A stretch of 64,000 nucleotides of DNA from assembly GCA_963700155.1 (NCBI GenBank), contig OY969472.1, positions 517,059 to 581,058 on the forward strand. Direction: 5' to 3'. The notes beneath the pieces are model-generated. The model was not told where the DNA came from. It did not search any database and saw only the letters and a list, made by a program, of their open reading frames with translations. A program made the position numbers and the translations under genes. Origin of the DNA: an uncultured bacterium. GTDB taxonomy: Bacteria > Patescibacteriota > Dojkabacteria > J137. Numbering within the stretch: the stretch's first letter is position 1; every line of letters starts with the position of its first letter. Shown piece after piece: positions 8,766-62,774 of the stretch.

Positions 8766-9641
8766 ATGAACTTAATAACCAGAGATAAAAAATTCATGAA
8801 TACAACAATCACCTTTAAAGTTGTTAAAGGTGATGTAACAACTGTAAAAACCCTAGATTCAATTGAAGCGGCTTTTGGTGAATTTGACAGAATTGTAAAA
8901 CAATATACAAGGTTTGATGAAAACTCTGAACTTTCAAATTTAAATAGAAATAGTGGTAAATGGGTCAAAGTTTCAAGCGAGTTTTTTTGGCTCATAGAAT
9001 ATATGCTTAAACTTGCCAAAAAAACTCGCGGTGCATTCGACCCAACAGTAATAGATTTTCTTGAAGTCTATGGCTATGATAAAAACTATGACTTCTCAAA
9101 ACTTAATAATCCAGAACTTGATAAATTAGTTGAAAAAATCAGTAAAACAAGAAAGTCATGGAAAGATGTTGAATTGAAGAAAAAGAGTAGCGAAGTAAAA
9201 TTGGCAAAGGTCCAAAAAATTGACTTAGGTGGAGTAGGTAAAGGATATGCAATAGATTGTGCTTTTGAAAAATTAAAACAAGTTTCAGATAATTTTCTTA
9301 TTGATGCTGGTGGAGATGTTAGAGCATCTGGCACTAATGAGAAGGGTGAATTATGGAAGGTTGGAATGAAAGATAGAGCAGGAGAAATTGAAGAATTAAT
9401 CGGATATATCGAGCTTAATAATGAAGCCCTCGCATGCTCTGGATCATGGTCTAGAAGAGTGAAACAGTTCCACCATCTTATAAACCCAGCGACTGGAGTT
9501 CCTCAAAATTATTATCGGACAGTTTTTGTTCAAGCTCCTGATGGAATTACTTCAGATTCATGGGCAACTGCAGTTTTTGTTTCGGGAGAAAATGACTTAA
9601 AAATTCCTGAAAATATGAAGATATTCAAAATAACTAATTGA
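8766..9641 (+). CDS. apbE: FAD:protein FMN transferase ApbE
   Basis: SELSNLN, GAFDPTV, DLGGVGKGYAID, ACSGS, HHLINPATG. Confidence 0.8.
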   Translation: MNLITRDKKFMNTTITFKVVKGDVTTVKTLDSIEAAFGEFDRIVKQYTRFDENSELSNLNRNSGKWVKVSSEFFWLIEYMLKLAKKTRGAFDPTVIDFLEVYGYDKNYDFSKLNNPELDKLVEKISKTRKSWKDVELKKKSSEVKLAKVQKIDLGGVGKGYAIDCAFEKLKQVSDNFLIDAGGDVRASGTNEKGELWKVGMKDRAGEIEELIGYIELNNEALACSGSWSRRVKQFHHLINPATGVPQNYYRTVFVQAPDGITSDSWATAVFVSGENDLKIPENMKIFKITN

Positions 9642-10338
9642 ATCCTTTTTGGAAGTACAAACTATTTAATCTATAACCGCTCTTAAAAACAGTTTCTATA
9701 AAATAACTCTCACTAGATTCACCTAATTTCTTTCTTAACCTGCTAATCAAAGTATCAACTGCACCATAAGAAACATCACTGTTGTTATAAAAAACTTTAC
9801 TTAAAATCTCATCCCTTGAATAAAGTCTTCCATTCGATTTTAAAAATAACAAAAGTAAATTGAATTCTAATTTCGTAAGATCTATCTGCAAGTCTTTTCT
9901 AAATACAACTTTTGAACACATATCAACTTTGAAATCTCCAACTTCAAATACTTCATTAAAGACTATATTTCTTGTTAGGGCTTTAATTTGAGCTTCGAGA
10001 AGTTTTAACTCAATTGGCTTTTTATGGAAAAGATTTGTTCCACACTCATAACTTTCAATTTCATATTCTAAACTATAATTTTCTGCTGTCATAATTGTTG
10101 GAGTTTCTATTCCTATATTTCTTATTCGTTGAAGTAAAGATAGGCCAGTTCCCTTATCAAGATCCATATCAATGATTATTAAGTCGAATTTTTCTCTATC
10201 AAGAATTCTTAGAGTATCAAGAGCTGAATATCTAACATCAACTTTGAAGTTTTTAAGATTTAAGAATTTCTTAAGCAGAAAAACTAATTTAATATCATCA
10301 TCTATTATTAAAATCTTTGCATTTTTTATTGATTTCAT
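9634..10338 (-). CDS. OmpR-family response regulator (receiver plus winged-helix); no adjacent histidine kinase
   Basis: ILIIDDD, DLIIIDMDL, C-terminal trans_reg_C-like ..VDTLISRLRKKL..ETVFKSGYRL. Confidence 0.8.
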   Translation of the reverse strand: MKSIKNAKILIIDDDIKLVFLLKKFLNLKNFKVDVRYSALDTLRILDREKFDLIIIDMDLDKGTGLSLLQRIRNIGIETPTIMTAENYSLEYEIESYECGTNLFHKKPIELKLLEAQIKALTRNIVFNEVFEVGDFKVDMCSKVVFRKDLQIDLTKLEFNLLLLFLKSNGRLYSRDEILSKVFYNNSDVSYGAVDTLISRLRKKLGESSESYFIETVFKSGYRLNSLYFQKGFN

Positions 10339-13201: not shown

Positions 13202-14431
13202 ATGTACAAAATTAATATGCGAAAAAAAATATTAATAAGCTTTATCTTTTTACAAGTTATTTTAATATTAGGCTCAGGTTTTGTAAGTGCTGATGATATT
13301 CAAAGCTTATCCACTCTTAATATTGACACTTCTATCACAGTAAAAGATACTACTGGTTTTGGAGATCCCACACAGATTATTGTTACTCCTGTTTTTATTA
13401 ATAATGGAACAGAAGTAAACACAGATAAATGGGTTAGAGGTATTTATTATTACACTATCGATAAATTAGGATTTCAAAACATTCCTTTTCATTATTTAAT
13501 TACAGAAGATGGTGGAGTTTTTAAAGGTAACAGCTCAGGTGATGAGAAAAAAATTAACATAGAAGGAATTGGCGATAATGCAGTTGTAGTTGGATATTTA
13601 AGTACAGATGAGGCGGGCGCTATAGCGCCCGCCTCAGAACAACCATTATCAAATCTGCTGCTAAATATAGCTAATCAAGATTCTATAAATCCTGAAAATA
13701 TATCAGCAAGTGGAATAAATTTTATTAAAGATAGTTCAAGCAATACAATAACAATTCAAAAAGCTAAAGTTGGGAGTGAGTGGAGTATAGGTATTAATAA
13801 AATTGTAAATAATATTAAAAATAAGTATTCTCCAATTACAAAAAAATATAGCGTTGAAATAACTCAGGTTACATTACCAACAAACGAAATAACACCTGGT
13901 GATGAAGCTACAGTCTCGATTAAAATAAAAAATACTGGTAAGAATGGATTTTATAGTGGTGCTAATTCTGAAATACTTTTAACAAAAGATAATGGAATTT
14001 CCAGCAACTTCTATATAAATAATACATGGCTCAGCCAAACTCAAACTGGAATAATGTCAGATGGTATATCTCTTCTCCCAGGTGAAGAAAAAGGGTTTGA
14101 TTTTAAAGTCAAAGCTCCACTGGCAACCGGAGATTATTCAGAAAACTTTATTTTGAAAACTGCAGGTGGAACTACTATAAAAAGTAACAAAAATATTGAG
14201 TTAAAAATTAAGTTAAAAAAAACTAATAAACAAATTATTGAGATAAAAACAAGCTATGATTATGTAAATGTAAGAAGCAAACCTTATGATTCAGCCCCTG
14301 TTTTAAGAAAAGTTACTGCAGGAGAAAGATATTTCCTTCTAGATCTAAATGAAGATACCCTTTGGGCAAAAATTGACTTAGGGGGTGGAGTAGAAGGTTA
14401 CCTTCCCGCTTGGGATTTGAAATATATTTAA
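13202..14431 (+). CDS. secreted cell-wall-associated protein: amidase_2/PGRP-like N-domain, Ig-like middle domain, C-terminal SH3b
   Basis: Signal/TM N-terminus. IPFHYLITEDGGVFKGN resembles amidase_2. C-terminal VNVRSKPYDSAPVLRKVTAGERYFLL..WAKI is SH3b-like. Confidence 0.5.
   Translation: MYKINMRKKILISFIFLQVILILGSGFVSADDIQSLSTLNIDTSITVKDTTGFGDPTQIIVTPVFINNGTEVNTDKWVRGIYYYTIDKLGFQNIPFHYLITEDGGVFKGNSSGDEKKINIEGIGDNAVVVGYLSTDEAGAIAPASEQPLSNLLLNIANQDSINPENISASGINFIKDSSSNTITIQKAKVGSEWSIGINKIVNNIKNKYSPITKKYSVEITQVTLPTNEITPGDEATVSIKIKNTGKNGFYSGANSEILLTKDNGISSNFYINNTWLSQTQTGIMSDGISLLPGEEKGFDFKVKAPLATGDYSENFILKTAGGTTIKSNKNIELKIKLKKTNKQIIEIKTSYDYVNVRSKPYDSAPVLRKVTAGERYFLLDLNEDTLWAKIDLGGGVEGYLPAWDLKYI
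13609..13636. repeat. 28-bp perfect GC-rich palindrome inside the amidase-like/SH3b gene
   Basis: TGAGGCGGGCGCTATAGCGCCCGCCTCA. Encodes ..DEAGAIAPASE.. Confidence 0.95.
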
Positions 14432-14442
14432 TAAAATTCTAA

Positions 14443-15930
14443 ATGCCAAAGGTAAAAATAATACTAATTATTGTTTTTGTGCTTTCTTTTTTTGTTAGTT
14501 TATTGCTTTTTCTAAAGTTTAATACTGTTGGATTTGAACAATCATTTAGGGCATATTTGGCATGGTATAACCCGACTGATGATAATTTAAAAAATTTCTA
14601 TGATATTTCGACTAGTCAAAATTTTTTATCTTCATTAAATTTTGAAAATCAGACTTTTAAAAACGGGACTGAATTGTTTGATTTCTTAAGGAATGAACAA
14701 AAGACAAACAATTCAGTCCCCGCAGTAGCTAAAGATAATCGAGACAGCAAAGTTCCAATTCAATTTGATGAAGAGAATATTGACGATACAAACCTTCCTC
14801 AGAAAATTACTTATGTATCACCTGGAGTTCTTGGATACTATGTATATAATTATGATCTAGTAAGATTCTCTCCTGATAAAAATACTCTTGAAAGCAAATA
14901 TTTAAATTTAAAAGAGAGTACTATTGATCCTATTTCAAAAAAGAATGTTACTGGTACAAAAGATTTAAAAACAGCAAAGACAGAAGTTAATAGTTATTTT
15001 AATAAACTTATAACTGATGTTGGCAATACAAACACATATGATGGCTTAACAAAAGAGAGTTTTAAAAAACTTGAAAACCACGAGGTTCTTGAAAATATTT
15101 CAGTTAATTCAATAAATTTTGTTGAAAAGAACTTTAAAGAAACTGAATTAAAAGATAACAAATTAATTATTGGAACGATAAATATTCACTTAGAAAACTG
15201 TTTTAAAGATTTTTCAGAAGATTTGAGTTTTTCTATCAATACCGGTGACATTCAAATTAATGACTTAAATGATTTTGTAAGTAACTTATGTAAAAAGCAA
15301 TTCGTTAAAGTTAATGGGGTAATTACCGGAACTTGTACTGATTGTACTTATTATCCAGCTGATAAATGGCATGCTTTAAGATCTGACTATACTCCCAAAA
15401 CTCAATTGATTGATTTCGCTCCGGGAGGACAATATATTAATACACAAGCATATAACGACTTTAAAGATTTATACAACGCAGCAAAAGCAGATGGAATATA
15501 TATTTATGTAACTTCAGGCTATCGTTCTTACAATACTCAAGTTGCGACATATCAAGGCTGGGTAAACACTGAACTTGCTGCTGGTTATTCTTTGTCTGAG
15601 GCAGAAGCTATTGCTAATACTTATTCAGCTCTTCCTGGGTACTCAGAGCACCAGCTTGGAACAGCGTTAGATTTAAATGGAGCAGGATGTGAAATTTCTG
15701 ATGGATATTGTTCAACAAACGAAACAATCTGGAACTGGCTTGCGGAAAATGCTTATAAATATGGGTTTGCACAATCATACCCTGAAGGAAAAGAGTCAAT
15801 TACAGGATATACCACCGAAAGGTGGCATTACAGGTGGATTGGGAAAGACTTAGCTGAAGAATATAAAAAAGCTGGAGGAGGAACAAAAATTACTTTAAAT
15901 GTATTTTTATTGAATAAAGGATTATATTAA
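14443..15930 (+). CDS. D-alanyl-D-alanine carboxypeptidase, peptidase M15B (VanY-like), membrane-anchored
   Basis: N-terminal TM. C-terminal SGYRSYNTQ, GYSEHQLGTALDL, ERWHYRW zinc-site motifs. Confidence 0.8.
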   Translation: MPKVKIILIIVFVLSFFVSLLLFLKFNTVGFEQSFRAYLAWYNPTDDNLKNFYDISTSQNFLSSLNFENQTFKNGTELFDFLRNEQKTNNSVPAVAKDNRDSKVPIQFDEENIDDTNLPQKITYVSPGVLGYYVYNYDLVRFSPDKNTLESKYLNLKESTIDPISKKNVTGTKDLKTAKTEVNSYFNKLITDVGNTNTYDGLTKESFKKLENHEVLENISVNSINFVEKNFKETELKDNKLIIGTINIHLENCFKDFSEDLSFSINTGDIQINDLNDFVSNLCKKQFVKVNGVITGTCTDCTYYPADKWHALRSDYTPKTQLIDFAPGGQYINTQAYNDFKDLYNAAKADGIYIYVTSGYRSYNTQVATYQGWVNTELAAGYSLSEAEAIANTYSALPGYSEHQLGTALDLNGAGCEISDGYCSTNETIWNWLAENAYKYGFAQSYPEGKESITGYTTERWHYRWIGKDLAEEYKKAGGGTKITLNVFLLNKGLY

Positions 15931-19396: not shown

Positions 19397-20542
19397 TTAA
19401 GCATCTCTTCTTAGAGGCATTAGAAGGTGAACAAATTTTGAATCATCTTTATCTTTAAAAACTGAAGCTGCCAATGGACCTTTAGTTTCAAAGATTATGG
19501 TGTCTCCTTTTATATGACTGACAACATCAGATATATATCGTAAATTGTAAGAAGCATTCAAATCACTTTCTCCATTTACAGAAGTCACTGGAATTAAAGT
19601 TTGATTTTCACCAACTTCAGCTACTACAGATTGCAACATAACAGTTGCGTTTTCTAGGTTGAGGTCAAAAAGTGTTTTGTATCCTAAATTACTTCTAGCA
19701 AAAGTATTAATGATCCTAATCGCAGATTCCAAATCTGACTTTTTGACCTCAAATGAATAGCTGAAAGAATCAGGCATTATCCTTTTATAATCAGGATAAG
19801 GTCCCTCTAATAATCTTATGCTGAATTCTATCTCTTCAAATTTAAAAATAACTTGGGATTTACTTTGACCTAAATAAACTTCAATACTATCAACATCAAC
19901 ATAATCTTGAATAATTTTAACCAATTCGCTTAAATATCTTGCCGGAACAATAACTTGTTCTGTTGGATATTCATTAACATCTTTTACTTTTGCACTACGC
20001 TTTGAAAGTCTAAAACCATCTAAACCAATAAAATTGATCTCACTTTTTTCTTTATCATATTCAAATAAAATTCCACTTTGCTGTATTTTTCCAGCTGATA
20101 AATCTGTTGATGAAGCAAAAATTACTTTATCCATTGATGCTAAAAATTCCTTTGCTGAAATTACAAACAGTGGAGTTTCTGAAACTTCTGGTAAAACAGG
20201 GAATTCGGTTGCCGGGATAGTAGTAAAATTAGCTTTTGAGTTTTCTGTTACAACATCTACTACATTATCATTCAAACTTAGTTCAACGTTATCTCCTACT
20301 GCTGCTGCAACAAAATCTGCAATGTATTTTGCTGATACAGTAACGCTTCCTTCTTGTTCAACTACTCCAGGTATCCACACATTTATCCCCATATCTAAGT
20401 TTGTTGCTGATAGTTTTAAACCATTCTTATTAACATCTAAAAGAACGTTTGAAAGTACTGGTATATTTGGTTTTAAACTAACAGCTCTACTTGTATATTG
20501 TAATGACTTTGAAAGGTTATCTCTGTTTAGTTTGATTTTCAT
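19397..20542 (-). CDS. dnaN: DNA polymerase III beta sliding clamp
   Basis: 381 aa. Typical start MKIKLNRDNLSKSLQYTSRAV..PVLSNVLL and C-terminal ..LMPLR. Confidence 0.9.
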   Translation of the reverse strand: MKIKLNRDNLSKSLQYTSRAVSLKPNIPVLSNVLLDVNKNGLKLSATNLDMGINVWIPGVVEQEGSVTVSAKYIADFVAAAVGDNVELSLNDNVVDVVTENSKANFTTIPATEFPVLPEVSETPLFVISAKEFLASMDKVIFASSTDLSAGKIQQSGILFEYDKEKSEINFIGLDGFRLSKRSAKVKDVNEYPTEQVIVPARYLSELVKIIQDYVDVDSIEVYLGQSKSQVIFKFEEIEFSIRLLEGPYPDYKRIMPDSFSYSFEVKKSDLESAIRIINTFARSNLGYKTLFDLNLENATVMLQSVVAEVGENQTLIPVTSVNGESDLNASYNLRYISDVVSHIKGDTIIFETKGPLAASVFKDKDDSKFVHLLMPLRRDA

Positions 20543-22528: not shown

Positions 22529-23938
22529 TTATTCTACATCCTCCGTTACAGCGGCATTATCTTGAATATTTGTTATTACTTGTGCAACTTGAGAATTAAA
22601 TCCATCCTGAATCATCATTTTGCTTTTAATCTTATCAAGTGCATGAAGCACAGTTGTATGATCAGTCCTTTTTAAATATTTTGCGACTTCTTCAAGTTTA
22701 TAACTAAATTCTTCTCTTAAGATATACATTGCAACTTGTCTTGCCAAAGCCAACTCCTTTGTTCTTCTCGGACCTTTTAAATCTTTTACAGTAACGCCAA
22801 ATGATTTAGCAACTTCTCTAATAACTTGAGGCACTTTAATCTGGGATCTTTTTGTTTGCGAATCTTTTCCAATTGTATGTGCAACTTCTTCTAATGTTAA
22901 ATCTCCATTCGGTTTCATTTGATTAAATAAAGCTACTTTTTGAAGTGCCCCTTCAAGCTCTCTTACATTATCCGAAATATTTCTAGCCAAGTACTCTAAA
23001 ATTGGCATTTTTAAATTATAGCCGGAGTTTTCAGATTTTCTGTATAAGATTGCAAGGCGAGTTTCATAATCCGGATTTGAAATATCAACTACCATCCCGC
23101 CTTGCATTCTAGTTCTTAATCTACTTTCCATATTTTGAATATCCTCAGGTCTTCTATCGGCAATTAAAATAATTTGTTTACCAGCATTATAAAGTTCATT
23201 GAAAGTATTGAAGAATTCTTCTTGAGTGTGAACCCATTTTGAAATAAGTTGCATATCATCAATAATAAGCATATCCGTTGGTCTATATTTAGCTCTAAAT
23301 TTCTCCATTTGCCCTGTTTTAATTCCTTTTACCATCTCATTCAAAAATCCTTCAGATGGTGTATAAATTATTTTTTTACTAGGATTCCTTTCTAAAATTG
23401 ATCTACCAATTGCTTGTGCCAAGTGTGTTTTCCCAACACCGGTTTTCCCATGAATAAATAAAGGATTGTATGATTGACCAGGTCTTTCAATAATTGCTAA
23501 AGCTGCAGCATGTGCAATTTTATTTGCATTTCCTACAATATAATTTGACATTGTATATTTAGGATTTAATCCGGATTTAGTAACAGCTTCAATTACATTA
23601 CCCATAAATCCATTCTCAACATCAAGTAAAGGTGAGGATGATATATTTTTTGGTTCATTTTCAGCTTCATCTTCTTTTTGTTCATGAGTAACTTCAAAAA
23701 CTGGATTTAAAACATCTCCATAAACATAACTAATTGTGTCTTTAATCATTTTTTCGTATCTATTTTTTATCCAATCAGAAATGAAGGGATTAGGTACTCC
23801 GATTATTGCTTTATTACCATCTATTTTAACTAATCTAGTTTCTTGAAAATATGTTTTAAATTGAGCAGGTGCGTCCAGTTTAATCTCTATTTGAGCTAGG
23901 GTCGTTTTCCAGAGCTGTTTTTCATCTCTAATTTTCAT
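22529..23938 (-). CDS. dnaA: chromosomal replication initiator DnaA
   Basis: GKTGVGKTHL, IIDDMQLIS, RLRTRMQGG, C-terminal KELALARQVAMYILRE..DHTTVLHA. I place the start at MKIRDEKQLW (23938); the ORF-track start is 23992. Confidence 0.95.
   Translation of the reverse strand: MKIRDEKQLWKTTLAQIEIKLDAPAQFKTYFQETRLVKIDGNKAIIGVPNPFISDWIKNRYEKMIKDTISYVYGDVLNPVFEVTHEQKEDEAENEPKNISSSPLLDVENGFMGNVIEAVTKSGLNPKYTMSNYIVGNANKIAHAAALAIIERPGQSYNPLFIHGKTGVGKTHLAQAIGRSILERNPSKKIIYTPSEGFLNEMVKGIKTGQMEKFRAKYRPTDMLIIDDMQLISKWVHTQEEFFNTFNELYNAGKQIILIADRRPEDIQNMESRLRTRMQGGMVVDISNPDYETRLAILYRKSENSGYNLKMPILEYLARNISDNVRELEGALQKVALFNQMKPNGDLTLEEVAHTIGKDSQTKRSQIKVPQVIREVAKSFGVTVKDLKGPRRTKELALARQVAMYILREEFSYKLEEVAKYLKRTDHTTVLHALDKIKSKMMIQDGFNSQVAQVITNIQDNAAVTEDVE
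23051..23106. repeat. 9-bp inverted repeat, 38-nt spacer, inside dnaA
   Basis: TGCAAGGCG (23051-23059) / CGCCTTGCA (23098-23106). Confidence 0.85.
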
Positions 23939-24022
23939 AGGTTTAAAGTAATGGTTAAAGAATATATACTTAAATGAAATAAGTATTTGCAAAAGCTATT
24001 TTTTTAGTGCTGAATTTTTTTA

Positions 24023-24052
24023 TTATACACAAAAAATTATCCACGTGGATAA
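24023..24052. promoter_or_regulatory. DnaA boxes in the dnaA-yidD intergenic region (candidate oriC or dnaA autoregulatory site)
   Basis: TTATACACA at 24023-24031 fits TTATNCACA. The 16-bp perfect palindrome TTATCCACGTGGATAA at 24037-24052 is two overlapping inverted boxes. Flanking sequence is A/T-rich. Confidence 0.6.
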
Positions 24053-24112
24053 CTTATAGTATTTTTTTGTATTAATCTTATTATTATAGACTGGTTTGTT
24101 ATATAATTATTT

Positions 24113-24349
24113 ATGTTTAAATCAATTGCAAAATTTTTAATAAAAACTTACCAGAAATTGTTTTCTTTCGATCACTCTTTTTGGGCGTCTTGGGTTGGAA
24201 TGCCTGTTTGCAGGTTTACACCAACATGCTCACAATATACTTATGAAGCTATTGATAAGTACGGGGTTTTTAAAGGAAGTTTTATTGGGTTTAAAAGAAT
24301 TTTAAGGTGTAATCCTTTTACAAAAGGCGGGTATGATCCGGTTCCTTAA
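24113..24349 (+). CDS. yidD: membrane protein insertion efficiency factor YidD
   Basis: [33 protein letters not shown]. Confidence 0.85.
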
Positions 24350-25131
24350 GAAATTCCTTTAAAAACCCCTACCTCATCATTATTTATAGAAACTATATCT
24401 ACTTTAAATCTTTTAGAAGCTTTTATTAACTCAGTTTTATAAGTTAGTTTTGAAACATAATCTTCTAAAGATTTCAAAATTCCTAAATCTTTACCAATTA
24501 TGATGTATTCTTTTCCATTTATTTTATTATCTGCTGCTCCAAATTTATTTCTTTTCTTATGATCAGGACTTCTTTTTATTAGTAAAGCATTCTTGTTTCT
24601 TAAATTAAATTTTTGATTAAAAAACGAATCACTATCTTTAAATCTAGATTCCCAAGATTGATCACCTTTGGAAACTATGATGTTGGGCAGATTAATTTCA
24701 TAATCCTTTATCTTTTCTTCTGATAAATAATTTTTTAATAATTCAAGAATATACACACTTCTTAAAAAACTTGTATCTAGCTTAAAATTTTTAAGTTTAA
24801 TTATATTTCCGTGTTTTATATCCCCTTTGTAATACTTCCTAATATTAATACCGGATTGGATATTTGTTGGGTTAAATATGTTAGAAAAATACTGGTAAAA
24901 ATCGATATTATATTCTAAAAAATCTATAAACTCCTTTTTAAGATAGATTGGTATATTTGTTTGTGCTGAGTTAAATTTTTCTGCAGATGAATTTTTAACA
25001 TTATGATTTAATTCTGATAAAAATTCATCCAAAATAAAATGAATATTCTTTAAATGTTTTTGCTTTACCTCTTTATTTGTTTTTAATTTTAAAACTCTTG
25101 GGCCAAAATCAATTAAATACTCGTAAATCAT
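24346..25131 (-). CDS. hypothetical protein
   Basis: 261-aa Lys/Asn-rich ORF. No confident motif. Confidence 0.4.
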
Positions 25132-26433: not shown

Positions 26434-26688
26434 ATGAATAAGTTATTTGTTTATTTAATTATTATTGGAGTATTAATATTATTACTTGTTTCTGGCTGGG
26501 AAGTTTATCAGATTTCATCTGGTGCGAGGTCAACTGGAGAAATTACTGTTATAGAGATAAGCAATGACACATTAATTCCTAGTGCTTTAGAGAATCATCT
26601 AAAGCAAGATCCGGATTATTCAAAATTTATTGTTAGTAACAATACTAATACAAATCAAAACGATCAAAATACACAAGTTACTCAATAA
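26434..26688 (+). CDS. small membrane-anchored protein
   Basis: 84 aa with an N-terminal TM. Third gene of the same tightly spaced trio. Confidence 0.4.
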   Translation: MNKLFVYLIIIGVLILLLVSGWEVYQISSGARSTGEITVIEISNDTLIPSALENHLKQDPDYSKFIVSNNTNTNQNDQNTQVTQ

Positions 26689-26809
26689 AAGCTCTACTGA
26701 TTTGCTAAATCCTGAAACCTTAAATATAATGTACTCAATCAGCGAATCATAAATTAACAAGTGTAAAGAGTTTGAGCTATATTTAATATGACAATTATAA
26801 TATTTAATA

Positions 26810-29023
26810 ATGGCAAGAAGAAAAAAACATATAACTTACGATAGTAAAGAAACACATACAATAGTCGGTTTAATCAGTTTTTTGCTTGGAATATTTTTTA
26901 TATTATCTCTAGTATCAGGGACAGAAAATACAAATAATTTATTTGCTCAGGCAAAAACTCTTTTTGGAGATTCTACAATAATAACTGCTCTATTTTTAAT
27001 TTCATTAGGATTGTCTTTTTTAGGGGTTGAATTACCATTCACAAAAAAAAGCAGTTTAATTTTTCAAGGTGGATTGATTTTTTTGATACCAGCTTTAATA
27101 ACATCACTCTCTTCAACACCAAGAGAATTAGTTAGAAGCGCTGATACTTTAGGTGGAATGGTAGGTTATTTTATTGTAAATACAGTACTTGGTGATACTA
27201 TACCTACTCAACCTGCGACTAAATTTATTCTACTTTCCTTAACTGTAATTTTTGTTCCACTAGCATTATCAATGTCAATAAGTGAATTGATTGACAAGAT
27301 AGCAATGTTTATAGGATGGCTTATTAATTTTATAAAATCAAACTCTGATGTTGAACAAGGAGAAGAAGAACCTAAAGCAACAAATTTTGGTGATTTCAAT
27401 AAATTGTTGAAAGAAAAGCAAATGTTGGAAGAGCAAAACAGGGAATTATTGAAAATGGATAAAAAACCTGAAGAAAAAATGCATCTTCCAGTAAGAGGAG
27501 AAGGCGCTAATATCTCTATCAAAGAAGGTGCAATTGGAGAAGATGGTTTAACACAGACAGCATTAAGATTTTCAAACTGGCAGCTTCCACCACTAAGCTT
27601 ATTGATTCCTTATAAAAAAAGTACAAATAAAGAGCCTGCAATTACTCAAAACGGACAAATTATAGAACAAATTTTATCTAGCTTTGGAATTGAAGCCAAA
27701 GTTGAAGATTCTTATGTAGGGCCATCTGTTATTCAATATGCGTTAAATATTCCACTAGGTGTAAAAGTTGAAAAAATTTCAAACTTAAGTGCAAATGTAG
27801 CACTAGCACTTGGAGTCGATTCGAAAGCAGTTCGAATCGACTCCATTCCAGGTACAACATATTTAGGTATTGAAGTTCCTAGAAGCAAAAGAGATATGGT
27901 AAGGATAAAAGAATTGATGGAATCACCACAGATGATGGATTCTAAAATGGAACTTCCTGCTCCTATAGGTAAAAATATTGATGGATCTGCAGTTATTACT
28001 GATATAAAAAAGATGCCTCATTTGCTTATTGCTGGAGCAACGGGCTCAGGAAAATCTGTTTTGACGAACTCTTTTATTGTTTCACTTTTACTTAAAAAAA
28101 CTCCTGATGAGGTAAGGCTTATTTTAGTTGATCCAAAGCAAGTTGAACTTTCAGACTATAATGGAATTCCACATTTATTAACTCCTGTTATTACAGACAT
28201 GGATCATGTTTTAAATGCTTTGAAATGGGCAGTAGGCGAAATGCAGAAAAGATATAATGTTCTTGCTAAAGAACAGGTAAGAAATATTGAAGGATACAAT
28301 CAAAAAAAAGGTTTTGCTTCAATGCCATATATTGTTATTGTAATTGATGAAATGGCTGATATGATGATGACTGCAAATAGAGTAGAGACTGAGACTGCAA
28401 TAGTAAGATTAGCTCAAAAAGCTAGAGCAGTAGGTATTCACTTAGTTCTCGCTACCCAAAGGCCTTCTGTAAATGTTATTACGGGTATTATTAAAGCTAA
28501 TATTCCAGGCAGAGTTGCTATGAGTGTAGCAAGTAGTACAGATTCAAGAGTTATTCTAGATAGAATTGGAGCAGAAAGCCTTCTTGGTTATGGAGATTTA
28601 TTGTACAAGGCTCCAGATAGTCCTAAGTCTATAAGGTTGCAAGGGTCTTTTGTTGACCAGCAGGAAGTTATCAGGGTTGTTGATTTCATTAAATCACAAG
28701 CTCCTGAGGTTGAATATGTAAATGAGATTATTGAGAAACAGGTGCAACCTGGAGAGGAAGCTATCGGCAATGGTGGTTTAAGTAGTATTTCTGAGGATAA
28801 TCTTCTTGAACAAGCGATTAGAATAGTTGTTCAAAATCAAAAAGGTTCCTCATCTTATTTGCAAAGAAGATTAAATATTGGATTTAATAGAGCAGCTAGA
28901 CTTCTTGAAGAACTTGAAGAGGCCGGGGTGGTTGGTCCTCCTAATGGTAGCAAGCCTAGAGAAGTTCTTGTTAGTGATGCTGATGCATTTATTGCAAGCT
29001 TAAAAAATACTTCACCTGAGTAA
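26810..29023 (+). CDS. ftsK: DNA translocase FtsK/SpoIIIE
   Basis: N-terminal TM segments, Walker A AGATGSGKS, Walker B VIVIDEMADMMM, ATQRPSV, C-terminal gamma wHTH SSSYLQRRLNIGFNRAARLLEELE. Confidence 0.92.
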   Translation: MARRKKHITYDSKETHTIVGLISFLLGIFFILSLVSGTENTNNLFAQAKTLFGDSTIITALFLISLGLSFLGVELPFTKKSSLIFQGGLIFLIPALITSLSSTPRELVRSADTLGGMVGYFIVNTVLGDTIPTQPATKFILLSLTVIFVPLALSMSISELIDKIAMFIGWLINFIKSNSDVEQGEEEPKATNFGDFNKLLKEKQMLEEQNRELLKMDKKPEEKMHLPVRGEGANISIKEGAIGEDGLTQTALRFSNWQLPPLSLLIPYKKSTNKEPAITQNGQIIEQILSSFGIEAKVEDSYVGPSVIQYALNIPLGVKVEKISNLSANVALALGVDSKAVRIDSIPGTTYLGIEVPRSKRDMVRIKELMESPQMMDSKMELPAPIGKNIDGSAVITDIKKMPHLLIAGATGSGKSVLTNSFIVSLLLKKTPDEVRLILVDPKQVELSDYNGIPHLLTPVITDMDHVLNALKWAVGEMQKRYNVLAKEQVRNIEGYNQKKGFASMPYIVIVIDEMADMMMTANRVETETAIVRLAQKARAVGIHLVLATQRPSVNVITGIIKANIPGRVAMSVASSTDSRVILDRIGAESLLGYGDLLYKAPDSPKSIRLQGSFVDQQEVIRVVDFIKSQAPEVEYVNEIIEKQVQPGEEAIGNGGLSSISEDNLLEQAIRIVVQNQKGSSSYLQRRLNIGFNRAARLLEELEEAGVVGPPNGSKPREVLVSDADAFIASLKNTSPE
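27811..27845. repeat. 15-bp perfect hairpin with a 5-nt loop, inside ftsK
   Basis: TGGAGTCGATTCGAA-AGCAG-TTCGAATCGACTCCA. Encodes LGVDSKAVRIDSI. Confidence 0.95.
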
Positions 29024-29031
29024 AAATTATT

Positions 29032-29451
29032 ATGAATACTTTAATTATTGAGACTAAATGCTTTAAAGTATTCTTGAATATTGAAAGCCAATATTACATT
29101 GGTAGATCTGTTGTTGTTCTAAAAAGAGAATGCGGAGAACTTTCTTTGTTAGAAGAAGAAGAGTGGAAAGATTTTGGTAACGTTGTTAAAAAATTTGAAA
29201 ATGCTCTTAAGAAAGCTTTTAATGCAACTATGTTTAATTGGACATGTTTGATGAATGGTGGATATCAAAATAAACCTTATAGTCCACAAATACATTGGCA
29301 TGTTAGACCAAGATACGATTCAGTAGTAAAGTTCGAAGGACTTGAGTGGAAAGATGATGCTTTTGGTGAACATTACGTTAGGGGCAATGATTTATCTTTT
29401 TCTAATAAGATAAATTTAAAAATAATTCATCAAATCCAAAAGTGTTTATGA
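29032..29451 (+). CDS. HIT-family-like protein with an altered triad (Q-x-H-x-H)
   Basis: ..NGGYQNKPYSPQIHWHVRPRY aligns with the HIT HxHxHxx region; the first His is replaced by Gln. Confidence 0.5.
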   Translation: MNTLIIETKCFKVFLNIESQYYIGRSVVVLKRECGELSLLEEEEWKDFGNVVKKFENALKKAFNATMFNWTCLMNGGYQNKPYSPQIHWHVRPRYDSVVKFEGLEWKDDAFGEHYVRGNDLSFSNKINLKIIHQIQKCL

Positions 29452-32572: not shown

Positions 32573-33685
32573 ATGAAAAAAAAGATATTAATAATAATTG
32601 CTGATATAGGAAATGGTCATAAATCTGCAGCTGAAGCTTTAACTTCAGTGTTTAATAATAAATATAAAGACGACTTCGAAGTAAAAGCTATAGATATTTT
32701 TAAAGAATCAGAGATAGAGCCTTTTGATAGTGCAGATATATCGTATAAATTTCTTTCTCAGAACAGAGCATATGAAAGCATTAGTAATTTAACTTGGAAA
32801 TTTACTAATACAGGACTAGGATTTGATATATATAAAAGTTATTTCTTAGGCAGGATTTTCGCATCAGCAGAAAAAATAATTAAGAGCGAAAATCCTGACC
32901 TTGTAATTTCAGCATATCCATTAACTTGTTCAATAGTTCAAAGAATGAAACTCCTTGGTGCTAATTTTAAATATGCAGTAGTTATTACAGACTTGATGAC
33001 AATTCATAGGTCTTGGGCTGATCCAACCGCAAATTTAATTACTTGCCCAACTTCTGATGCTGTAAGCACTTTAATAAAATATGGAGTAAATATTAATAAA
33101 ATAATATATCCATTATTTCCGCTAAAACCTGAACTAGAAAATTATAGGGCTAAAGAGATTGTAGTTGACGAACTGAAGTTGAAAGCTAGTAAACCAATTA
33201 TATTAATAACAGGTGGAGCATTAGGAACAAAAGCTATAAAAAAGGCAATAGATAAGCTTGCTGAGAATAAAAACTTACAATTGATTGTTGTTGCCGGAAG
33301 ATTAGATAGCTTTAAAACTGAATTAGAAAATAAATATAAGGGTCAGAAAAATATAAAAATCTTAGGTTTTGTAAATAACATGTATGATTATTTGAATGCT
33401 TGTGATATCTTGATCGGAAAGCCAGGTGCAACAACAGTAATGGAAGTTCAGTTGTTTGATAAAAGGGCTATTTTTACTAGATATATTGGAGAACATGATT
33501 CTGGCAATGTTAAATACGCATTAAGAGATCCTAAGATTAGATATATTGAAGATGATTGGGATAAGATTCAGAAATATGTAGATGAGCTTTTGGATTTTAA
33601 TCCTAGAGAAACTGAATTCATCCCTAAAAGAAGTTATGATGAGAGCGAAAAGATTGTAGAGGAGATAGTAAAATTAATAAACTAA
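32573..33685 (+). CDS. GT28-family diacylglycerol glycosyltransferase (MGDG-synthase/UgtP-like)
   Basis: ADIGNGHKSAAEAL N-terminal motif, GGALG, GKPGATTVME. Confidence 0.7.
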   Translation: MKKKILIIIADIGNGHKSAAEALTSVFNNKYKDDFEVKAIDIFKESEIEPFDSADISYKFLSQNRAYESISNLTWKFTNTGLGFDIYKSYFLGRIFASAEKIIKSENPDLVISAYPLTCSIVQRMKLLGANFKYAVVITDLMTIHRSWADPTANLITCPTSDAVSTLIKYGVNINKIIYPLFPLKPELENYRAKEIVVDELKLKASKPIILITGGALGTKAIKKAIDKLAENKNLQLIVVAGRLDSFKTELENKYKGQKNIKILGFVNNMYDYLNACDILIGKPGATTVMEVQLFDKRAIFTRYIGEHDSGNVKYALRDPKIRYIEDDWDKIQKYVDELLDFNPRETEFIPKRSYDESEKIVEEIVKLIN

Positions 33686-44696: not shown

Positions 44697-46424
44697 ATGA
44701 ATGACATTAAATCTGATTTACAAAATAACTTAACAGAAGCTTTAAAAAGTCTAGGTATTAAAGATGTTGAAATTGAAATAGAAAGACCAAAAGATGAATC
44801 ACATGGGGATTTTTCTTCTAATGTATCTATGAAATTATCAGCAGTTCTAAAGAAAAATCCCTTACAAATTGCACAAGAATTAGTAACTGAACTTGATAAA
44901 AACAAATTGGAATCTATAGAAAAAATTGAAGCTGTAAATCCAGGATTTATTAATTTCTATATCAAAAAATCTGCTTATTTAAATATCCTTGAAAATGTAA
45001 TATCACTTTCAGATAAATTCGGAGCAAACAATATTGGAGAAGGAAAAAATGTTATTGTTGAATTTAGTTCCCCAAATATTGCGAAACCGTTTACTATTGG
45101 ACATTTGCGATCAACTATTATTGGTGATTCAATTGCAAAAATTTTAGAGTTCTCAGGATATAAAGTTTTTAGAGATAATCATTTAGGTGATTGGGGAGCT
45201 TCATTCGGTAAGTATCTGGCTGCATTTGAACATTACAATATAGATATTGAAGAGATCAAAAAATCCGATCGTCCAATAAAGCAGCTTGTAGATTTATATA
45301 TAAAATTTACTCAAGACTCCGAAGAAAATCCTGATCTTAAAGAATTAGGACGAGAGTGGTTTAAAAAACTAGAAGATGGAGATGAAAAAGCTAGAAAACT
45401 TTGGCAGGAATGTATAAATATATCATTTATTGAATTTGATAAAGTTTATAAAAAACTTAATGTTTCTTTTACAGAAAATGAAGGTAAAGGTTATGGTGAA
45501 TCTTTTTTTGAAGACAAAATGCCTGCAGTTATAAAAGAGTTAGAAGAAGCAAATGAACAAAAGAGAGTAGATTATCATAAAAGTGAAGGTGCAATGCTGG
45601 TGTTCTTTCCTAAAGAAGAACTCCCCCCAATGATGGTTTTAAAAAGCAATGGGACAACACTTTACTCAACTCGAGATTTGGCAACAGATAAGTATAGAAA
45701 AGAAAATTCGAGATACGGATACCCAAATTTGACTGTAATAAATGAAACTGGAATAGAGCAGAGTCTTTATTGGAAACAAATTTTTAAAACTGAAGAGATG
45801 CTAGGTTGGTACAAAAAAGGAGAACGTATTGCAATAATGCATGGATTGTACAGATTTAAAGAAGGAAAAATGTCTACTAGAAAAGGAAATGTTATTTGGC
45901 TTGAAGATGTGCTAAATGAATCAATCAATAGAGCTGAAAAACTATCCAAAGAAGAAGAGGCTGAATTGCCAGTTAAAATAGGGGTAGGTGCAATAAAATG
46001 GAATGATTTAAAAAGGGATCCTAAACAAGATATTGTTTTTGATTGGGAAGAGATTCTAAATTTAAAAGGTAATTCAAGTCCTTATATTCAATATACTTAT
46101 GTTCGAGCAAATAAAATTGGAAAAACTAATAATTTTGATTTTAATGATATAACTCCAAACGAAGAAGAAGGAAAAGTTCTAGATTTAATATCTCAGTTTG
46201 GTCAAATTATTGAGTATTCAGCACAAAATTATCAATCCAGTACTATTTGTACCTATTTATTTAATCTTTCTCAATCTTATAGCACCTTCTATGAAAAACA
46301 TAGAATTTTAAATGCTGAAGATGAAAAAACAAAAAATTTTCGAATAGCTTTATCTCAGGCAACAGCTCAGGTAATCAAGAATGGTTTAAATCTGCTGGGA
46401 ATTGAAACTGTAGAAAGAATGTAA
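44697..46424 (+). CDS. argS: arginine--tRNA ligase
   Basis: SSPNIAKPFTIGHLRS (HIGH region), MSTRKG (KMSK-like), C-terminal anticodon-binding DALR-type domain. Confidence 0.95.
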   Translation: MNDIKSDLQNNLTEALKSLGIKDVEIEIERPKDESHGDFSSNVSMKLSAVLKKNPLQIAQELVTELDKNKLESIEKIEAVNPGFINFYIKKSAYLNILENVISLSDKFGANNIGEGKNVIVEFSSPNIAKPFTIGHLRSTIIGDSIAKILEFSGYKVFRDNHLGDWGASFGKYLAAFEHYNIDIEEIKKSDRPIKQLVDLYIKFTQDSEENPDLKELGREWFKKLEDGDEKARKLWQECINISFIEFDKVYKKLNVSFTENEGKGYGESFFEDKMPAVIKELEEANEQKRVDYHKSEGAMLVFFPKEELPPMMVLKSNGTTLYSTRDLATDKYRKENSRYGYPNLTVINETGIEQSLYWKQIFKTEEMLGWYKKGERIAIMHGLYRFKEGKMSTRKGNVIWLEDVLNESINRAEKLSKEEEAELPVKIGVGAIKWNDLKRDPKQDIVFDWEEILNLKGNSSPYIQYTYVRANKIGKTNNFDFNDITPNEEEGKVLDLISQFGQIIEYSAQNYQSSTICTYLFNLSQSYSTFYEKHRILNAEDEKTKNFRIALSQATAQVIKNGLNLLGIETVERM

Positions 46425-47810: not shown

Positions 47811-48800
47811 TTACTGATTTAGGTTTAAGTTAACCCAAGTATTAAAGACATCTAAGGAATTATTTTTTGGATCAATTAACCCAGTGGTTTTAAAGGGTTT
47901 AGGATAATTATTTGAGTCATACAAAAATGGCCAGATAATGAATTTCATATGTAATGATTTTGATAAATTCGGGATCATCTCTACATACTTGATTTGTTCT
48001 TCTGCAGAACTTTCCCATCCAGAAATTCCTTCATCTTTAAACCATGCAGTTTCTGTAATTGCAATTGGCTTATCTGTTTTTGCAGAAATAACGCTCCAAT
48101 AATCTGAAGGAATTTCTGACGGATCTTTATAAATTAATCCTGGATAAGTTGTAAATGCTAAAAAATCAGCATTATCAAATTTTGATAATATTTCCCATTG
48201 TGTTTTTGTTTCATCATTTACTCCACCAAATAATCCGCCGTTTAAGCCTTTAAGATTTTCATATTGAAACACTGTGAATATCTGAGTCTCAGGACTTGTT
48301 GTTTTTACTAATTCATAAAGCTGGTTAAACCATGTGCTGAATCTATCTAAGTCACCTGATAACTCTTTATTAATTTCATTTCCGAATCCAAGATATTTAG
48401 GATTATATGTTTTCACAAATTGAACAATTGCTTTGTTATATTCATTTTCTTGTATAAGTGAAGGGATCTCTTTAACACCGATAATAATTACCGGGGTTAA
48501 GTTGTATGAAGGAGCGGCTTTCATTAAGAAAGCCGCTCCTGAGTTCTCATCTAAAATGTCAGAAATATTTCCTGCCCAAGATACTACTTTGCAGCATTCT
48601 TTTGTTTTTGTAAAGAAATCGTCAATTCCAGATTGACTATAATCATTAGGTGATAAACTAAGTCCTTTTTGAGTTGATTCTGAAGTATTTTGAACTAAAT
48701 TTGAATTTCTGCTATTTAAGAATAATCCAATTATTAAAACAATAATTAGACTAACAACAAGGATTCCAATAAAGATTGAGATTAATAATTTCTTATTCAT
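47811..48800 (-). CDS. membrane-anchored clan GH-A (TIM-barrel) glycoside hydrolase-like protein
   Basis: FGNEINKE (acid/base NE) and ITETAW (nucleophile E) motifs. I moved the start to MNKKLL (48800) because the ORF-track start at 48902 runs into tRNA-Arg. Confidence 0.5.
   Translation of the reverse strand: MNKKLLISIFIGILVVSLIIVLIIGLFLNSRNSNLVQNTSESTQKGLSLSPNDYSQSGIDDFFTKTKECCKVVSWAGNISDILDENSGAAFLMKAAPSYNLTPVIIIGVKEIPSLIQENEYNKAIVQFVKTYNPKYLGFGNEINKELSGDLDRFSTWFNQLYELVKTTSPETQIFTVFQYENLKGLNGGLFGGVNDETKTQWEILSKFDNADFLAFTTYPGLIYKDPSEIPSDYWSVISAKTDKPIAITETAWFKDEGISGWESSAEEQIKYVEMIPNLSKSLHMKFIIWPFLYDSNNYPKPFKTTGLIDPKNNSLDVFNTWVNLNLNQ
48510..48540. repeat. 13-bp perfect hairpin with a 5-nt loop, inside the GH-A-like gene
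   Basis: AGGAGCGGCTTTC-ATTAA-GAAAGCCGCTCCT. Confidence 0.95.
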
Positions 48801-48887
48801 TTTAGAAAATATGATACTACTAACTATACTCAGTGTGATCTTTAAGATCAAACTTTCACAATGGTATAATCTTTTTGCAGTATTTAT

Positions 48888-48961
48888 GTACCCATAGCTC
48901 AACTGGATAGAGCACTACTTTGCGGAAGTAGCGGTTGGAGGTTCGACCCCTCTTGGGTACA
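48888..48961 (+). tRNA. tRNA-Arg (anticodon GCG)
   Basis: Hand-folded cloverleaf: acceptor GUACCCA/UGGGUAC, D arm GCUC..GAGC, anticodon stem CUACU/AGUAG with loop UUGCGGA, T arm GGAGG-UUCGACC-CCUCU. CCA is not encoded. Confidence 0.85.
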
Positions 48962-49049
48962 GTTAAGCTTCTGTATCTCCTTAAATATTAAAAATTCCAA
49001 CATATCATATTATAAATGTTAAAATTTTTTAAATATTACACATCTGAAA

Positions 49050-61986: not shown

Positions 61987-62010
61987 GGCGCTCCGATTTA
62001 TCGGAGCGCC
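61987..62010 (+). terminator. GC-rich hairpin after the 71-aa ORF (terminator-like, no clear U tract)
   Basis: GGCGCTCCGAT-TT-ATCGGAGCGCC, an 11-bp perfect stem 16 nt after the stop codon. Confidence 0.35.
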
Positions 62011-62095
62011 AGAACCCTATTGTTGTTAGATTTTGGCAGCAATTAATGATATAATGATTATAGACATTTTTTATTCATGTTCTTTGAGGTGTGTA

Positions 62096-62380
62096 ATGAT
62101 TCGACAGAGTATTGGGAAAGCTTTGGGTATGTTTGGGGCAGCAATGCTGCTGCTTCATTTACTCATAACAGCGATCCTGTTCAATGGTCAAGATGACCCA
62201 TTAGGACATCTTGACTTGTCAGGATGGGTAGGATTAATTCTGCCTGTCATTTTGTCGGTTGGTTTGATGATCTACTCAATCTATCTGGTTGAGTTTCATC
62301 AAACTCGAGTTCTAAATCATGATCATGTAACAAAAATCGACTTCGTGGTCAGGCATCGAACTCATCTGCACGTCAGATGA
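62096..62380 (+). CDS. small two-TM membrane protein with a His-rich C-terminal tail; locally elevated GC
   Basis: ATG preceded by GAGGTG. MIRQSIGKALGMFGAAMLLLHLL...HQTRVLNHDHVTKIDFVVRHRTHLHVR. Hand count is about 42% GC against about 30% in the surroundings. Confidence 0.45.
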   Translation: MIRQSIGKALGMFGAAMLLLHLLITAILFNGQDDPLGHLDLSGWVGLILPVILSVGLMIYSIYLVEFHQTRVLNHDHVTKIDFVVRHRTHLHVR

Positions 62381-62396
62381 GACATTGCTTGATCGA

Positions 62397-62458
62397 GGGC
62401 GCTCGCGAAAGAGCTTGGTGACCAAAAGTCCCAGGTGCGAGCGCCCGAAAGGCTTTTT
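62397..62458 (+). terminator. compound GC-rich stem plus short hairpin and T-run downstream of the His-rich ORF
   Basis: GGGCGCTCGC (62397-62406) pairs with GCGAGCGCCC (62437-62446), then GCCCGAAAGGC followed by TTTTTGT. Confidence 0.45.
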
Positions 62459-62774
62459 GTATTTAACACTCTTTGGACTTAAACCCCCTCATACCCACAA
62501 TATATTGAATAACCTATATAATGATGATATAATTAATTATACTTTTATTACCAGGAATGATTATATGTCGCCACTGGTAATTTGAGGATAGCGTAGTATT
62601 AAAAAATACTACAATTAAGATGTTGTGAGAATATCTGAAGATCTAAAGTCTAAAGATAAACATCTTAAAATTCTTTAAAGATAGCTGCAAATGCCTTGCT
62701 GTGGGATAAGATAATATATAAATGTTGTTTTATTCCATAGCAAGGTTAACCAGCTAAAATGCTAAAATAAAACT

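Follow-up and report, generated by a model that had tools for sequence, protein, structure and literature searches.

In a 64,000-nucleotide stretch of the genome of an uncultured Dojkabacteria bacterium (GenBank assembly GCA_963700155.1, contig OY969472.1, positions 517,059 to 581,058; this whole stretch, with 30% GC and about 91% coding sequence, is referred to here as the window), the gene ftsK was shown to contain a perfect inverted repeat that can fold into a 15-bp stem with a 5-nucleotide (nt) loop. This hairpin is far from chance, and it is probably a lineage-specific, neutral product of template switching, by which a quasipalindrome encoded by a conserved peptide was homogenised. The stem and its AGCAG loop had been reported in an original prediction made from the DNA sequence, in which both the sequence and the coordinates (27811-27845) proved to be exact. 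The host gene and the components of the hairpin are as follows, with positions counted from the first nucleotide of the window.

26810 to 29023, plus strand: ftsK, an open reading frame (ORF) of 737 amino acids from the ORF list, with Pfam matches FtsK_alpha, FtsK_SpoIIIE and FtsK_gamma, and 120 Dojkabacteria homologues at no more than 72% amino acid identity.
27811 to 27825: left arm TGGAGTCGATTCGAA, codons (CT)T GGA GTC GAT TCG AA(A), encoding L-G-V-D-S-K.
27826 to 27830: loop (spacer) AGCAG, with the centre of symmetry at the middle base of the Ala codon GCA.
27831 to 27845: right arm TTCGAATCGACTCCA, codons (G)TT CGA ATC GAC TCC A(TT), encoding V-R-I-D-S-I.

All 15 positions of the arms form Watson-Crick pairs, with neither G.U pairs nor bulges, and the edges of the stem are sharp, as neither the next outward positions (T27810/T27846) nor those that close the loop (A27826/G27830) are complementary. 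The stem is followed directly on its 3' side by TTCCAGGTAC. Pfam analysis of the FtsK protein assigned residues 259-357 to FtsK_alpha, 366-554 to the FtsK_SpoIIIE motor and 662-721 to FtsK_gamma. The hairpin encodes residues 334-346 (L-G-V-D-S-K-A-V-R-I-D-S-I) and therefore lies inside the alpha domain, ahead of the Walker A motif (GATGSGKS) and upstream of the ATPase core, as had been predicted. Alignment with orthologues revealed no inversion of the AGCAG spacer.

The codons of the two arms pair in register (GGA with TCC, GTC with GAC, GAT with ATC, TCG with CGA, and AA of the Lys codon with TT of the Val codon), such that second positions face second positions and free third positions face first positions that are fixed by the amino acid. 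The peptide is antisense-symmetric codon by codon (Gly/Ser, Val/Asp, Asp/Ile and Ser/Arg) and alone supplies approximately 8 of the 15 pairs, and ten synonymous choices must all be right for the stem to be perfect. Six of these ten required codons are rare, accounting for 7% (GTC), 5% (TCG), 11% (CGA), 10% (ATC), 14% (GAC) and 4% (TCC) of their synonymous sets. Given the peptide and the codon usage of the window, the probability of a perfect 15-bp stem was calculated to be 1.2e-8. In the synonymous-shuffle test that the original prediction had suggested, 20,000 recodings of the site yielded 7.9 +/- 1.5 pairs (at most 13), compared with the 15 observed, and a mean energy of -5.7 kcal/mol, compared with -24.3 kcal/mol observed. 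The earlier statement that the amino acid sequence does not force the pairing consequently holds as far as codon choice is concerned, which is what makes the stem perfect, yet the peptide was found to predispose strongly to pairing.

Folding of the 35-nt hairpin as RNA gave an energy of -23.5 kcal/mol, with z = -6.2 in a 95-nt context around it, and folding as DNA gave -17.2 kcal/mol (z = -7.4). It is not the most stable structure within a coding region, as had been proposed, since four other coding hairpins in the window are equally or more stable (3696-3740, -28.5 kcal/mol; 13601-13640, -27.2 kcal/mol; 48506-48545, -25.2 kcal/mol; 14665-14720, -25.1 kcal/mol). No 15-bp perfect repeat was obtained in any shuffle of the window. 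By eye, four GANTC and four TCGA sites were spotted in the arms, a clustering that is a trivial consequence of the dyad symmetry.

On the basis of its FtsK homologues, the organism was assigned to Candidatus Dojkabacteria (WS6; Patescibacteria, candidate phyla radiation). Orthologous DNA was obtained for 36 loci by a scan of species-representative genomes, for one metagenome locus and, by exact look-up, for the three best-scoring homologues. The peptide LALGVDSKAVRI[ED][ST]IP is near-invariant in 114 of the 120 FtsK homologues, with no indels at the site, and orthologues that keep this peptide align without gaps and in the same register, representing an imperfect repeat with 5-11 of the 15 Watson-Crick pairs. 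The hairpin itself was present at none of 38 orthologous loci, which hold 3-11 (typically 7-9) of the 15 pairs; these counts match the synonymous null given above, and the minimum free energies at the orthologous sites range from -1 to -11 kcal/mol. One orthologue (L002) reaches 11 Watson-Crick and two G.U pairs, and the best-scoring one (L043) already carries the rare TCG...CGA inner pair. No covariation, for which a test had likewise been suggested, was detected among 31 gaplessly aligned orthologues, in which 67.6% of cells were paired compared with 68.2 +/- 0.8% after shuffling (413 of 500 shuffles being as high), with a covariation score at the stem of 0.074, below the shuffle mean of 0.081. 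Judged from these sequences, the pairing is not conserved in Dojkabacteria and is lineage-specific. As the ftsK hairpin shows, significance in a synonymous shuffle is by itself no indicator of selection.

With regard to the closeness of the available relatives, none above 72% amino acid identity for FtsK was found among the 120 homologues, nor by a search for partial FtsK fragments (again 72% at best), and the 36 loci from representative genomes are all at most 76% identical to the ftsK region at the nucleotide level. A metagenome scan with a variable linker peptide retrieved a single locus (69% amino acid identity), an exact look-up of the FtsK protein retrieved nothing besides the source genome and one identical contig from Logan, and the 90%-identity clusters obtained for eight of nine queried window proteins contained no relative among their other members. 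At the 70-76% nucleotide identity that separates ftsK from its orthologues, synonymous sites are saturated. Compared with the orthologue consensus, the left arm differs at three and the right arm at five of its 15 positions, the right-arm changes being GTA to GTT, AGA to CGA, ATT to ATC, GAA to GAC (E to D) and TCT to TCC. As a separate observation, the ftsK orthologue of the complete genome KatS3mg085 (AP024679.1, L034) is apparently frameshifted just upstream of the hairpin-equivalent site (about 10100-10200), based on a tblastn match of 262 rather than 261 nt, in-frame stops and the annotation of only a 365-amino-acid C-terminal protein, indicative of either a split or pseudogenised gene or a sequencing error.

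The ftsK hairpin was found to be one of a class. A census of perfect inverted repeats (arms, 11 bp or longer; spacers, 40 nt or shorter), restricted to the 64-kb window and compared with shuffles that keep local triplet content or with a second-order Markov model, revealed 13 repeats where 2-3 were expected. Six of these possess arms of at least 13 bp where about 0.1 were expected, corresponding to an excess of about 50-fold. Twelve of the 13 are located inside long ORFs, their sequences are all different, their spacers range from 0 to 32 nt, and all three codon phases are represented. The arms average 47% GC, compared with 30% for the genome and 15% for chance repeats in the shuffles, and the class clearly extends to several GC-rich 10-bp repeats, such as the one at 3706-3729. 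In 50 kb of Escherichia coli K-12 scanned in the same manner, five such repeats were found, all of which are intergenic and none of which is in a coding sequence. Dojkabacteria relatives average 6.4 repeats per 64 kb, against which the 13 of the window correspond to a Poisson P of 0.014, and richer loci exist in L037 (JGI contig Ga0226835_1000179; 12 repeats in 20 kb) and in L011 (the Dojkabacteria metagenome-assembled genome, MAG, JAUQWV010000003.1; eight in 20 kb), which are 95.2% identical to each other over 20 kb. The sister repeats considered here are listed below, where L040 and L014 denote loci compared for ComM/YifB, the L040 relative showing 80% amino acid and 75% nucleotide identity.

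3248 to 3294, ComM/YifB gene: 14-bp repeat with a 19-nt spacer, of which a 10-bp core is common to L040.
3706 to 3729, ComM/YifB gene: 10-bp repeat GGGCGGGGGA/TCCCCCGCCC, 90% GC, missing from L040 and L014.
3757 to 3781, ComM/YifB gene: 11-bp repeat (IR3757) with a 3-nt spacer, common to L040 and missing from L014.
8808 to 8834, ApbE gene: 11-bp repeat; ITFK of the left arm is conserved, and V-QDK of the right arm is replaced by V-KGD, the reverse complement of the left arm.
8977 to 9029, ApbE gene: 15-bp repeat with a 23-nt spacer; AKKTR in the query corresponds to ANETE in orthologues, which hold 5-9 of the 15 pairs.
13609 to 13636, SH3-domain gene: 28-bp perfect palindrome (TGAGGCGGGCGCTA followed directly by TAGCGCCCGCCTCA), no spacer, 71% GC; orthologues hold 2-6 of the 14 pairs.
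14665 to 14720, VanY-domain gene: 16-bp repeat with a 24-nt spacer.
24986 to 25029, ApbE-like ORF: 12-bp repeat, also present in Logan contig L039; orthologues hold 0-6 of the 12 pairs.
32851 to 32897, MGDG-synthase-like gene: 12-bp repeat; SE[KN]PD of the right arm is conserved, RIFA of the left arm corresponds to MLLE in orthologues, which hold 1-6 of the 12 pairs.
44806 to 44861, argS: 12-bp repeat, both arms of which encode conserved residues, as in ftsK.
48510 to 48540, ORF without a Pfam match: 13-bp repeat with a 5-nt spacer, 62% GC.

The ComM/YifB gene (3057-4571, minus strand) thus holds three separate repeats, and the 106 nt that span the second and third of them fold at -52 kcal/mol (z = -7.1). 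The palindrome at 13609-13636 sits in a poorly conserved part of the SH3-domain protein (peptide DEAGAIAPAS) and could represent a zero-spacer template switch or an insertion. A 16-pair stem at 63068-63123, within ORF 62775-63437, contains two G.U pairs (in DNA, 14 Watson-Crick pairs and one mismatch), has a 24-nt spacer and an energy of -26 kcal/mol, and may be a decaying member of the perfect-repeat class. Concerning the gene that hosts the 48510-48540 repeat (ORF 47811-48902, minus strand), the 5' end of its longest version overlaps tRNA-Arg(GCG) at 48887-48962 by 16 nt; since the exact protein of this longest version is missing from the public collection, its true start is probably located further downstream.

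The make-up of the excess is the pattern of copying at the DNA level and not that of selection for RNA structure, as it is confined to perfect stems without G.U pairs. Strict Watson-Crick stems of at least 13 pairs numbered 5-6 in the window compared with 0.07-0.27 expected, whereas stems with at least two G.U pairs, on either strand, reached only 1.5-2 times their expectation. Repeats with one internal mismatch were not in excess (two, compared with 1.3 expected), in contrast to the six perfect ones. In the fetched loci, sister repeats were missing at orthologous sites wherever orthologues were available. Furthermore, one arm of a sister repeat was shown to keep the peptide of the family, while the other bears clustered replacements that represent its reverse complement; besides the two ApbE cases listed above, examples are ETRP/RSPH replaced by LRRP/RSPH in ComM and, in the glycosyltransferase listed above as MGDG-synthase-like, MLLE/SEKPD replaced by RIFA/SENPD. 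At the nucleotide level, the asymmetry between arms has the predicted direction in most repeats, and this signal is weak compared with a background divergence of 30-50%.

Comparison with L040 showed templated multi-nucleotide changes in the neighbouring ComM/YifB gene. In the 3706-3729 repeat, AAA in L040 corresponds to CGC (K to R), with all three bases changed and with the rarest Arg codon (9 of 662) being used. In the 3248-3294 repeat, the 10-bp core is lengthened through ATG to TTC (M to F), the reverse complement of the partner GAA. Both new codons, CGC and TTC, exactly complement the partner arm, and whole-codon templated changes of this type are the hallmark of template switching (PMC8604942, PMC8794818).

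Because the sister repeats show the same signature, we infer that the ftsK hairpin originated by template switching and is likely to be functionally neutral. According to the proposed mechanism, the conserved alpha-domain peptide gives every Dojkabacteria ftsK a quasipalindrome of about eight of 15 pairs, and during replication the nascent strand would fold back, or cross the fork, and copy one arm from the other. Copying probably involved a single short tract, or a few of them, that started from the TCGAA/TTCGA inner stem already in place and ran outward; in this way, the free third positions of one arm would become complementary to the opposite arm. Only outcomes that preserve the protein would survive, which would account for the run of rare codons and for the single conservative change (E to D). 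The perfect state would probably be kept by repeated correction and not by a function of the hairpin, with the mRNA hairpin and any translational slowing being side effects. Left-to-right copying is favoured at least 10-fold by codon usage (3.3e-4 compared with 3.4e-5) and also by orthologue codon frequencies, such that the right arm is, with low confidence, the likelier converted arm.

Repeated correction would also be in keeping with the persistence of some repeats. IR3757 (CGG CGA CCT TTC AGG TCG CCG CAT), a repeat with many rare codons, matches between the query and L040 at all eight synonymous codons (P about 0.005, as the two share 52% of synonymous codons at conserved residues). L011 and L037 share six perfect repeats, in which none of 158 arm nucleotides differ, compared with about 7.6 expected, and in which the spacers vary; a further seven repeats are specific to one of the two genomes and differ by 1-5 nt, each of which may represent gain by switching or loss by point mutation. 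Perfect arms therefore outlast neutral sequence, a behaviour that fits recurrent correction (PMC5941160) and that, taken alone, is compatible with selection as well.

Several points weigh against a neutral template-switch origin. The direction of copying is uncertain, as both ftsK arms differ from the orthologue consensus. A single arm-to-arm copy is protein-neutral only with the correct third positions in the template, the probability of which is about 3e-4 for the left arm, so that the model requires more than one short tract or a precursor that happened to be favourable. With the nearest FtsK at 72% amino acid identity, the ancestral state of the site and a single-step origin appear to be beyond reconstruction. 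The arm-asymmetry signals, when set against the background divergence, are suggestive and do not constitute proof. Finally, the long retention of repeats (IR3757 in L040, and those shared by L011 and L037) fits selection equally well, and correction and selection for stable hairpins are equally compatible with the GC-rich arms.

These last points bear on the best of the alternative explanations, namely that the ftsK hairpin is a lineage-specific functional RNA element, which either slows ribosomes as they pass from the linker/alpha domain to the motor or acts as an RNase III or stability element, and that, in an AT-rich transcriptome, the remaining GC-rich coding hairpins have similar roles. 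The high stability of the stem, the use of rare codons against codon bias, the GC enrichment of repeat arms over both genome and chance repeats, and the persistence of some sister repeats over substantial divergence are all compatible with such a role. It is nevertheless considered unlikely, as the pairing is neither conserved (38 loci) nor associated with covariation (31 orthologues), and as the excess is limited to stems free of G.U pairs and mismatches, which selection on RNA would not require. In addition, the sister repeats have spacers of up to 32 nt and no shared position within genes, they carry a cost of amino acid replacements in conserved proteins, and both an Rfam match and a terminator tail are missing from the ftsK hairpin. 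The selected RNA signal implied by the original prediction, in the form of a transcript end or a pausing site, therefore gained no support from conservation, covariation, terminator tail, promoter or Rfam family.

An Rfam E-value scan of 27300-28400 returned only sub-threshold noise from miRNA precursors (18 bits, compared with a gathering score of 49), and a scan of the whole window at gathering thresholds identified two tRNAs and no other family. An intrinsic terminator was rejected, given that 26500-29300 holds no terminator-like sites beyond shuffle expectation and that no U-tract follows the stem, and no internal promoter beyond shuffle expectation was found near the hairpin. A conserved cis-regulatory RNA was ruled out by the 38 orthologous loci, the pair-count and covariation test and Rfam.

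A functional palindrome at the DNA level, serving as a binding site for a dimeric protein or as a cruciform or hairpin for replication or segregation near dnaA, appears very improbable. The perfect dyad symmetry, the stability of the DNA hairpin, and the proximity of dnaA, dnaN and a cumulative GC-skew minimum at about 24 kb are features that such a site might show; GC skew tracks gene orientation, however, and while it suggests an origin near 24 kb, it is uninformative on the hairpin. The arm sequence has no other occurrence in the window even at three mismatches, the twelve other perfect repeats are without a common motif, and the site falls in a conserved coding segment and is missing in every orthologue, including those with the same ftsK-dnaA neighbourhood. 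An operator- or dif-like binding site likewise seems absent, as judged from the lack of a recurrent half-site in the window, the coding location and the absence from syntenic relatives, and the hairpin does not appear to resemble the 11-6-11 arrangement of a dif-type site.

As regards the origin region itself, dnaA (22529-23992) and dnaN (19397-20542) are both present in the window on the minus strand, genes change their orientation near 25 kb, and cumulative GC skew reaches its lowest value at about 22-26 kb. On these grounds, the 353-bp gap at 23993-24345, which lies about 3.5 kb away from the ftsK hairpin, probably contains the chromosomal origin. The neighbourhood of ftsK, small ORFs, an ApbE-like gene, yidD, dnaA and dnaN is kept in L042 and L043.

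That the repeats are artefacts of sequencing, amplification or assembly, for example through in vitro template switching by a polymerase, is less plausible still. Such an origin might be suspected since all repeats are perfect, none is decayed, and no close relative provides confirmation. However, an independently assembled Logan contig of run ERR11571143 matches the window at 100% identity over 4215 bp, a stretch that holds both the ftsK hairpin and the 24986-25029 repeat. All 12 coding repeats keep the frame and are free of stops, whereas a stop arose in 28% of the arm conversions simulated without selection (P about 0.02), which indicates that the repeats have passed through selection in vivo. 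Moreover, two of the ComM repeats are at least partly common to L040, a different organism from a different run, and similar repeats occur in related MAGs from other studies.

Completion of the ftsK stem by synonymous drift, i.e. by chance, is barely conceivable: although about eight of the 15 pairs come free with the peptide and L043 already possesses the rare TCG...CGA pair, the probability for the site, the lack of 15-bp repeats in shuffles and the 50-fold excess of repeats with arms of at least 13 bp all contradict it. In-frame insertion of an RPE-, REP- or MITE-like palindromic mobile element, of which insertions in coding genes are known from Rickettsia (cited in PMC6649704), has practically nothing to commend it, since the site encodes the conserved peptide of the family in a gapless alignment of unchanged length, with no indel relative to the 114 closest homologues and no second copy in the window or in viral contigs.

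Viewed as a template-switch product, the ftsK hairpin is a further instance of a known mutational phenomenon, and the density of repeats in this lineage is more notable. Short perfect inverted repeats are enriched in bacteria, which has been attributed to template switching or quasipalindrome correction according to the Ripley model (Lavi et al. 2018, PMC5941160), and in non-coding DNA of E. coli, the observed-to-expected ratio for repeats with arms of 13 bp or longer is about 150 (PMC5941160). The repeats of the window resemble these in having perfect arms of 11-16 bp, spacers below 70 nt and an excess that grows with arm length (here to about 50), in that perfect repeats are favoured over imperfect ones, and in that shared repeats show stronger conservation in their arms than in the surrounding sequence. 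They differ in their context, as the earlier repeats are from non-coding DNA of Proteobacteria, whereas 12 of the 13 described here are inside ORFs of a 30% GC genome of the candidate phyla radiation (CPR).

A second parallel is provided by the mitochondria of Nematomorpha, where coding palindromes are exclusively perfect and where active repeat conversion was favoured by the authors over function (Mikhailov et al. 2019, PMC6649704); the perfect-or-absent pattern was attributed to active homogenisation of arms in both PMC5941160 and PMC6649704. In common with those palindromes, the repeats of the window are perfect, are located in genes, are either perfect or absent, are gained and lost between species, encode conserved residues in both arms and use codon degeneracy to optimise pairing. 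Unlike them, they have arms of 10-16 bp (compared with palindromes of up to 284 bp), reside on a bacterial rather than a mitochondrial chromosome and occur at a far lower density.

Template switching has also been shown to cause multi-residue replacements in yeast genes (Abraham & Hazkani-Covo 2021, PMC8604942) and to be capable of creating RNA hairpins (Monttinen & Loytynoja 2022, PMC8794818). As in those events, multi-nucleotide changes here make the arms complementary (AAA to CGC, ATG to TTC, QDK to KGD, NETE to KKTR) and form non-synonymous clusters without an adaptive cause. In contrast to the dense phylogenies and polarised events of those studies, the present comparisons are at 66-80% amino acid identity, and nearly all of the ftsK case is synonymous. 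With conserved cis-regulatory mRNA structures and intrinsic terminators, the ftsK hairpin has in common a stable stem-loop in the transcript, and it differs from them in being unconserved and fully Watson-Crick, without an Rfam match or a U-tract.

The findings imply that a very stable, non-chance stem in an essential gene can still be best explained by mutation rather than function. They also point to many template-switch footprints in conserved genes of a CPR genome, some of which rewrite 3-4 adjacent residues in a single step, and this has a bearing on how clustered substitutions, runs of rare codons and apparent compensatory changes are read in CPR comparative genomics. If confirmed genome-wide, the lineage would offer a natural system for the study of inverted-repeat homogenisation in reduced genomes.

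More tentatively, it is possible that this lineage and some of its relatives (L011/L037) carry unusually dense and actively maintained GC-rich perfect coding palindromes. About one such palindrome occurs per 5 kb of coding sequence, twice the family average, and some are retained where half of the synonymous codons have changed. If this were true, these palindromes would be a bacterial counterpart of those in Nematomorpha mitochondria, with the ftsK hairpin as one visible member. Template switching is suppressed by ExoI and ExoVII. Dense palindromes of this kind might reflect a peculiarity of CPR replication or repair, for instance that template switching is only weakly suppressed in a reduced genome, or else a role of hairpins in an AT-rich transcriptome that is selected throughout the genome.

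At the right end of the window, three further strong stem-loops were observed that are not part of the main ORFs, and none of them matched an Rfam family above threshold. A GC-rich 11-bp hairpin at 61987-62010 follows a small membrane ORF, a stem formed by GGGCGCTCGC and GCGAGCGCCC at 62397-62446 is succeeded by a T-run and lies after ORF 62033-62380, and a 25-pair stem with six G.U pairs (-33 kcal/mol) at 62693-62746 is located upstream of ORF 62775-63437. These three structures possibly represent terminators or an undescribed small RNA.

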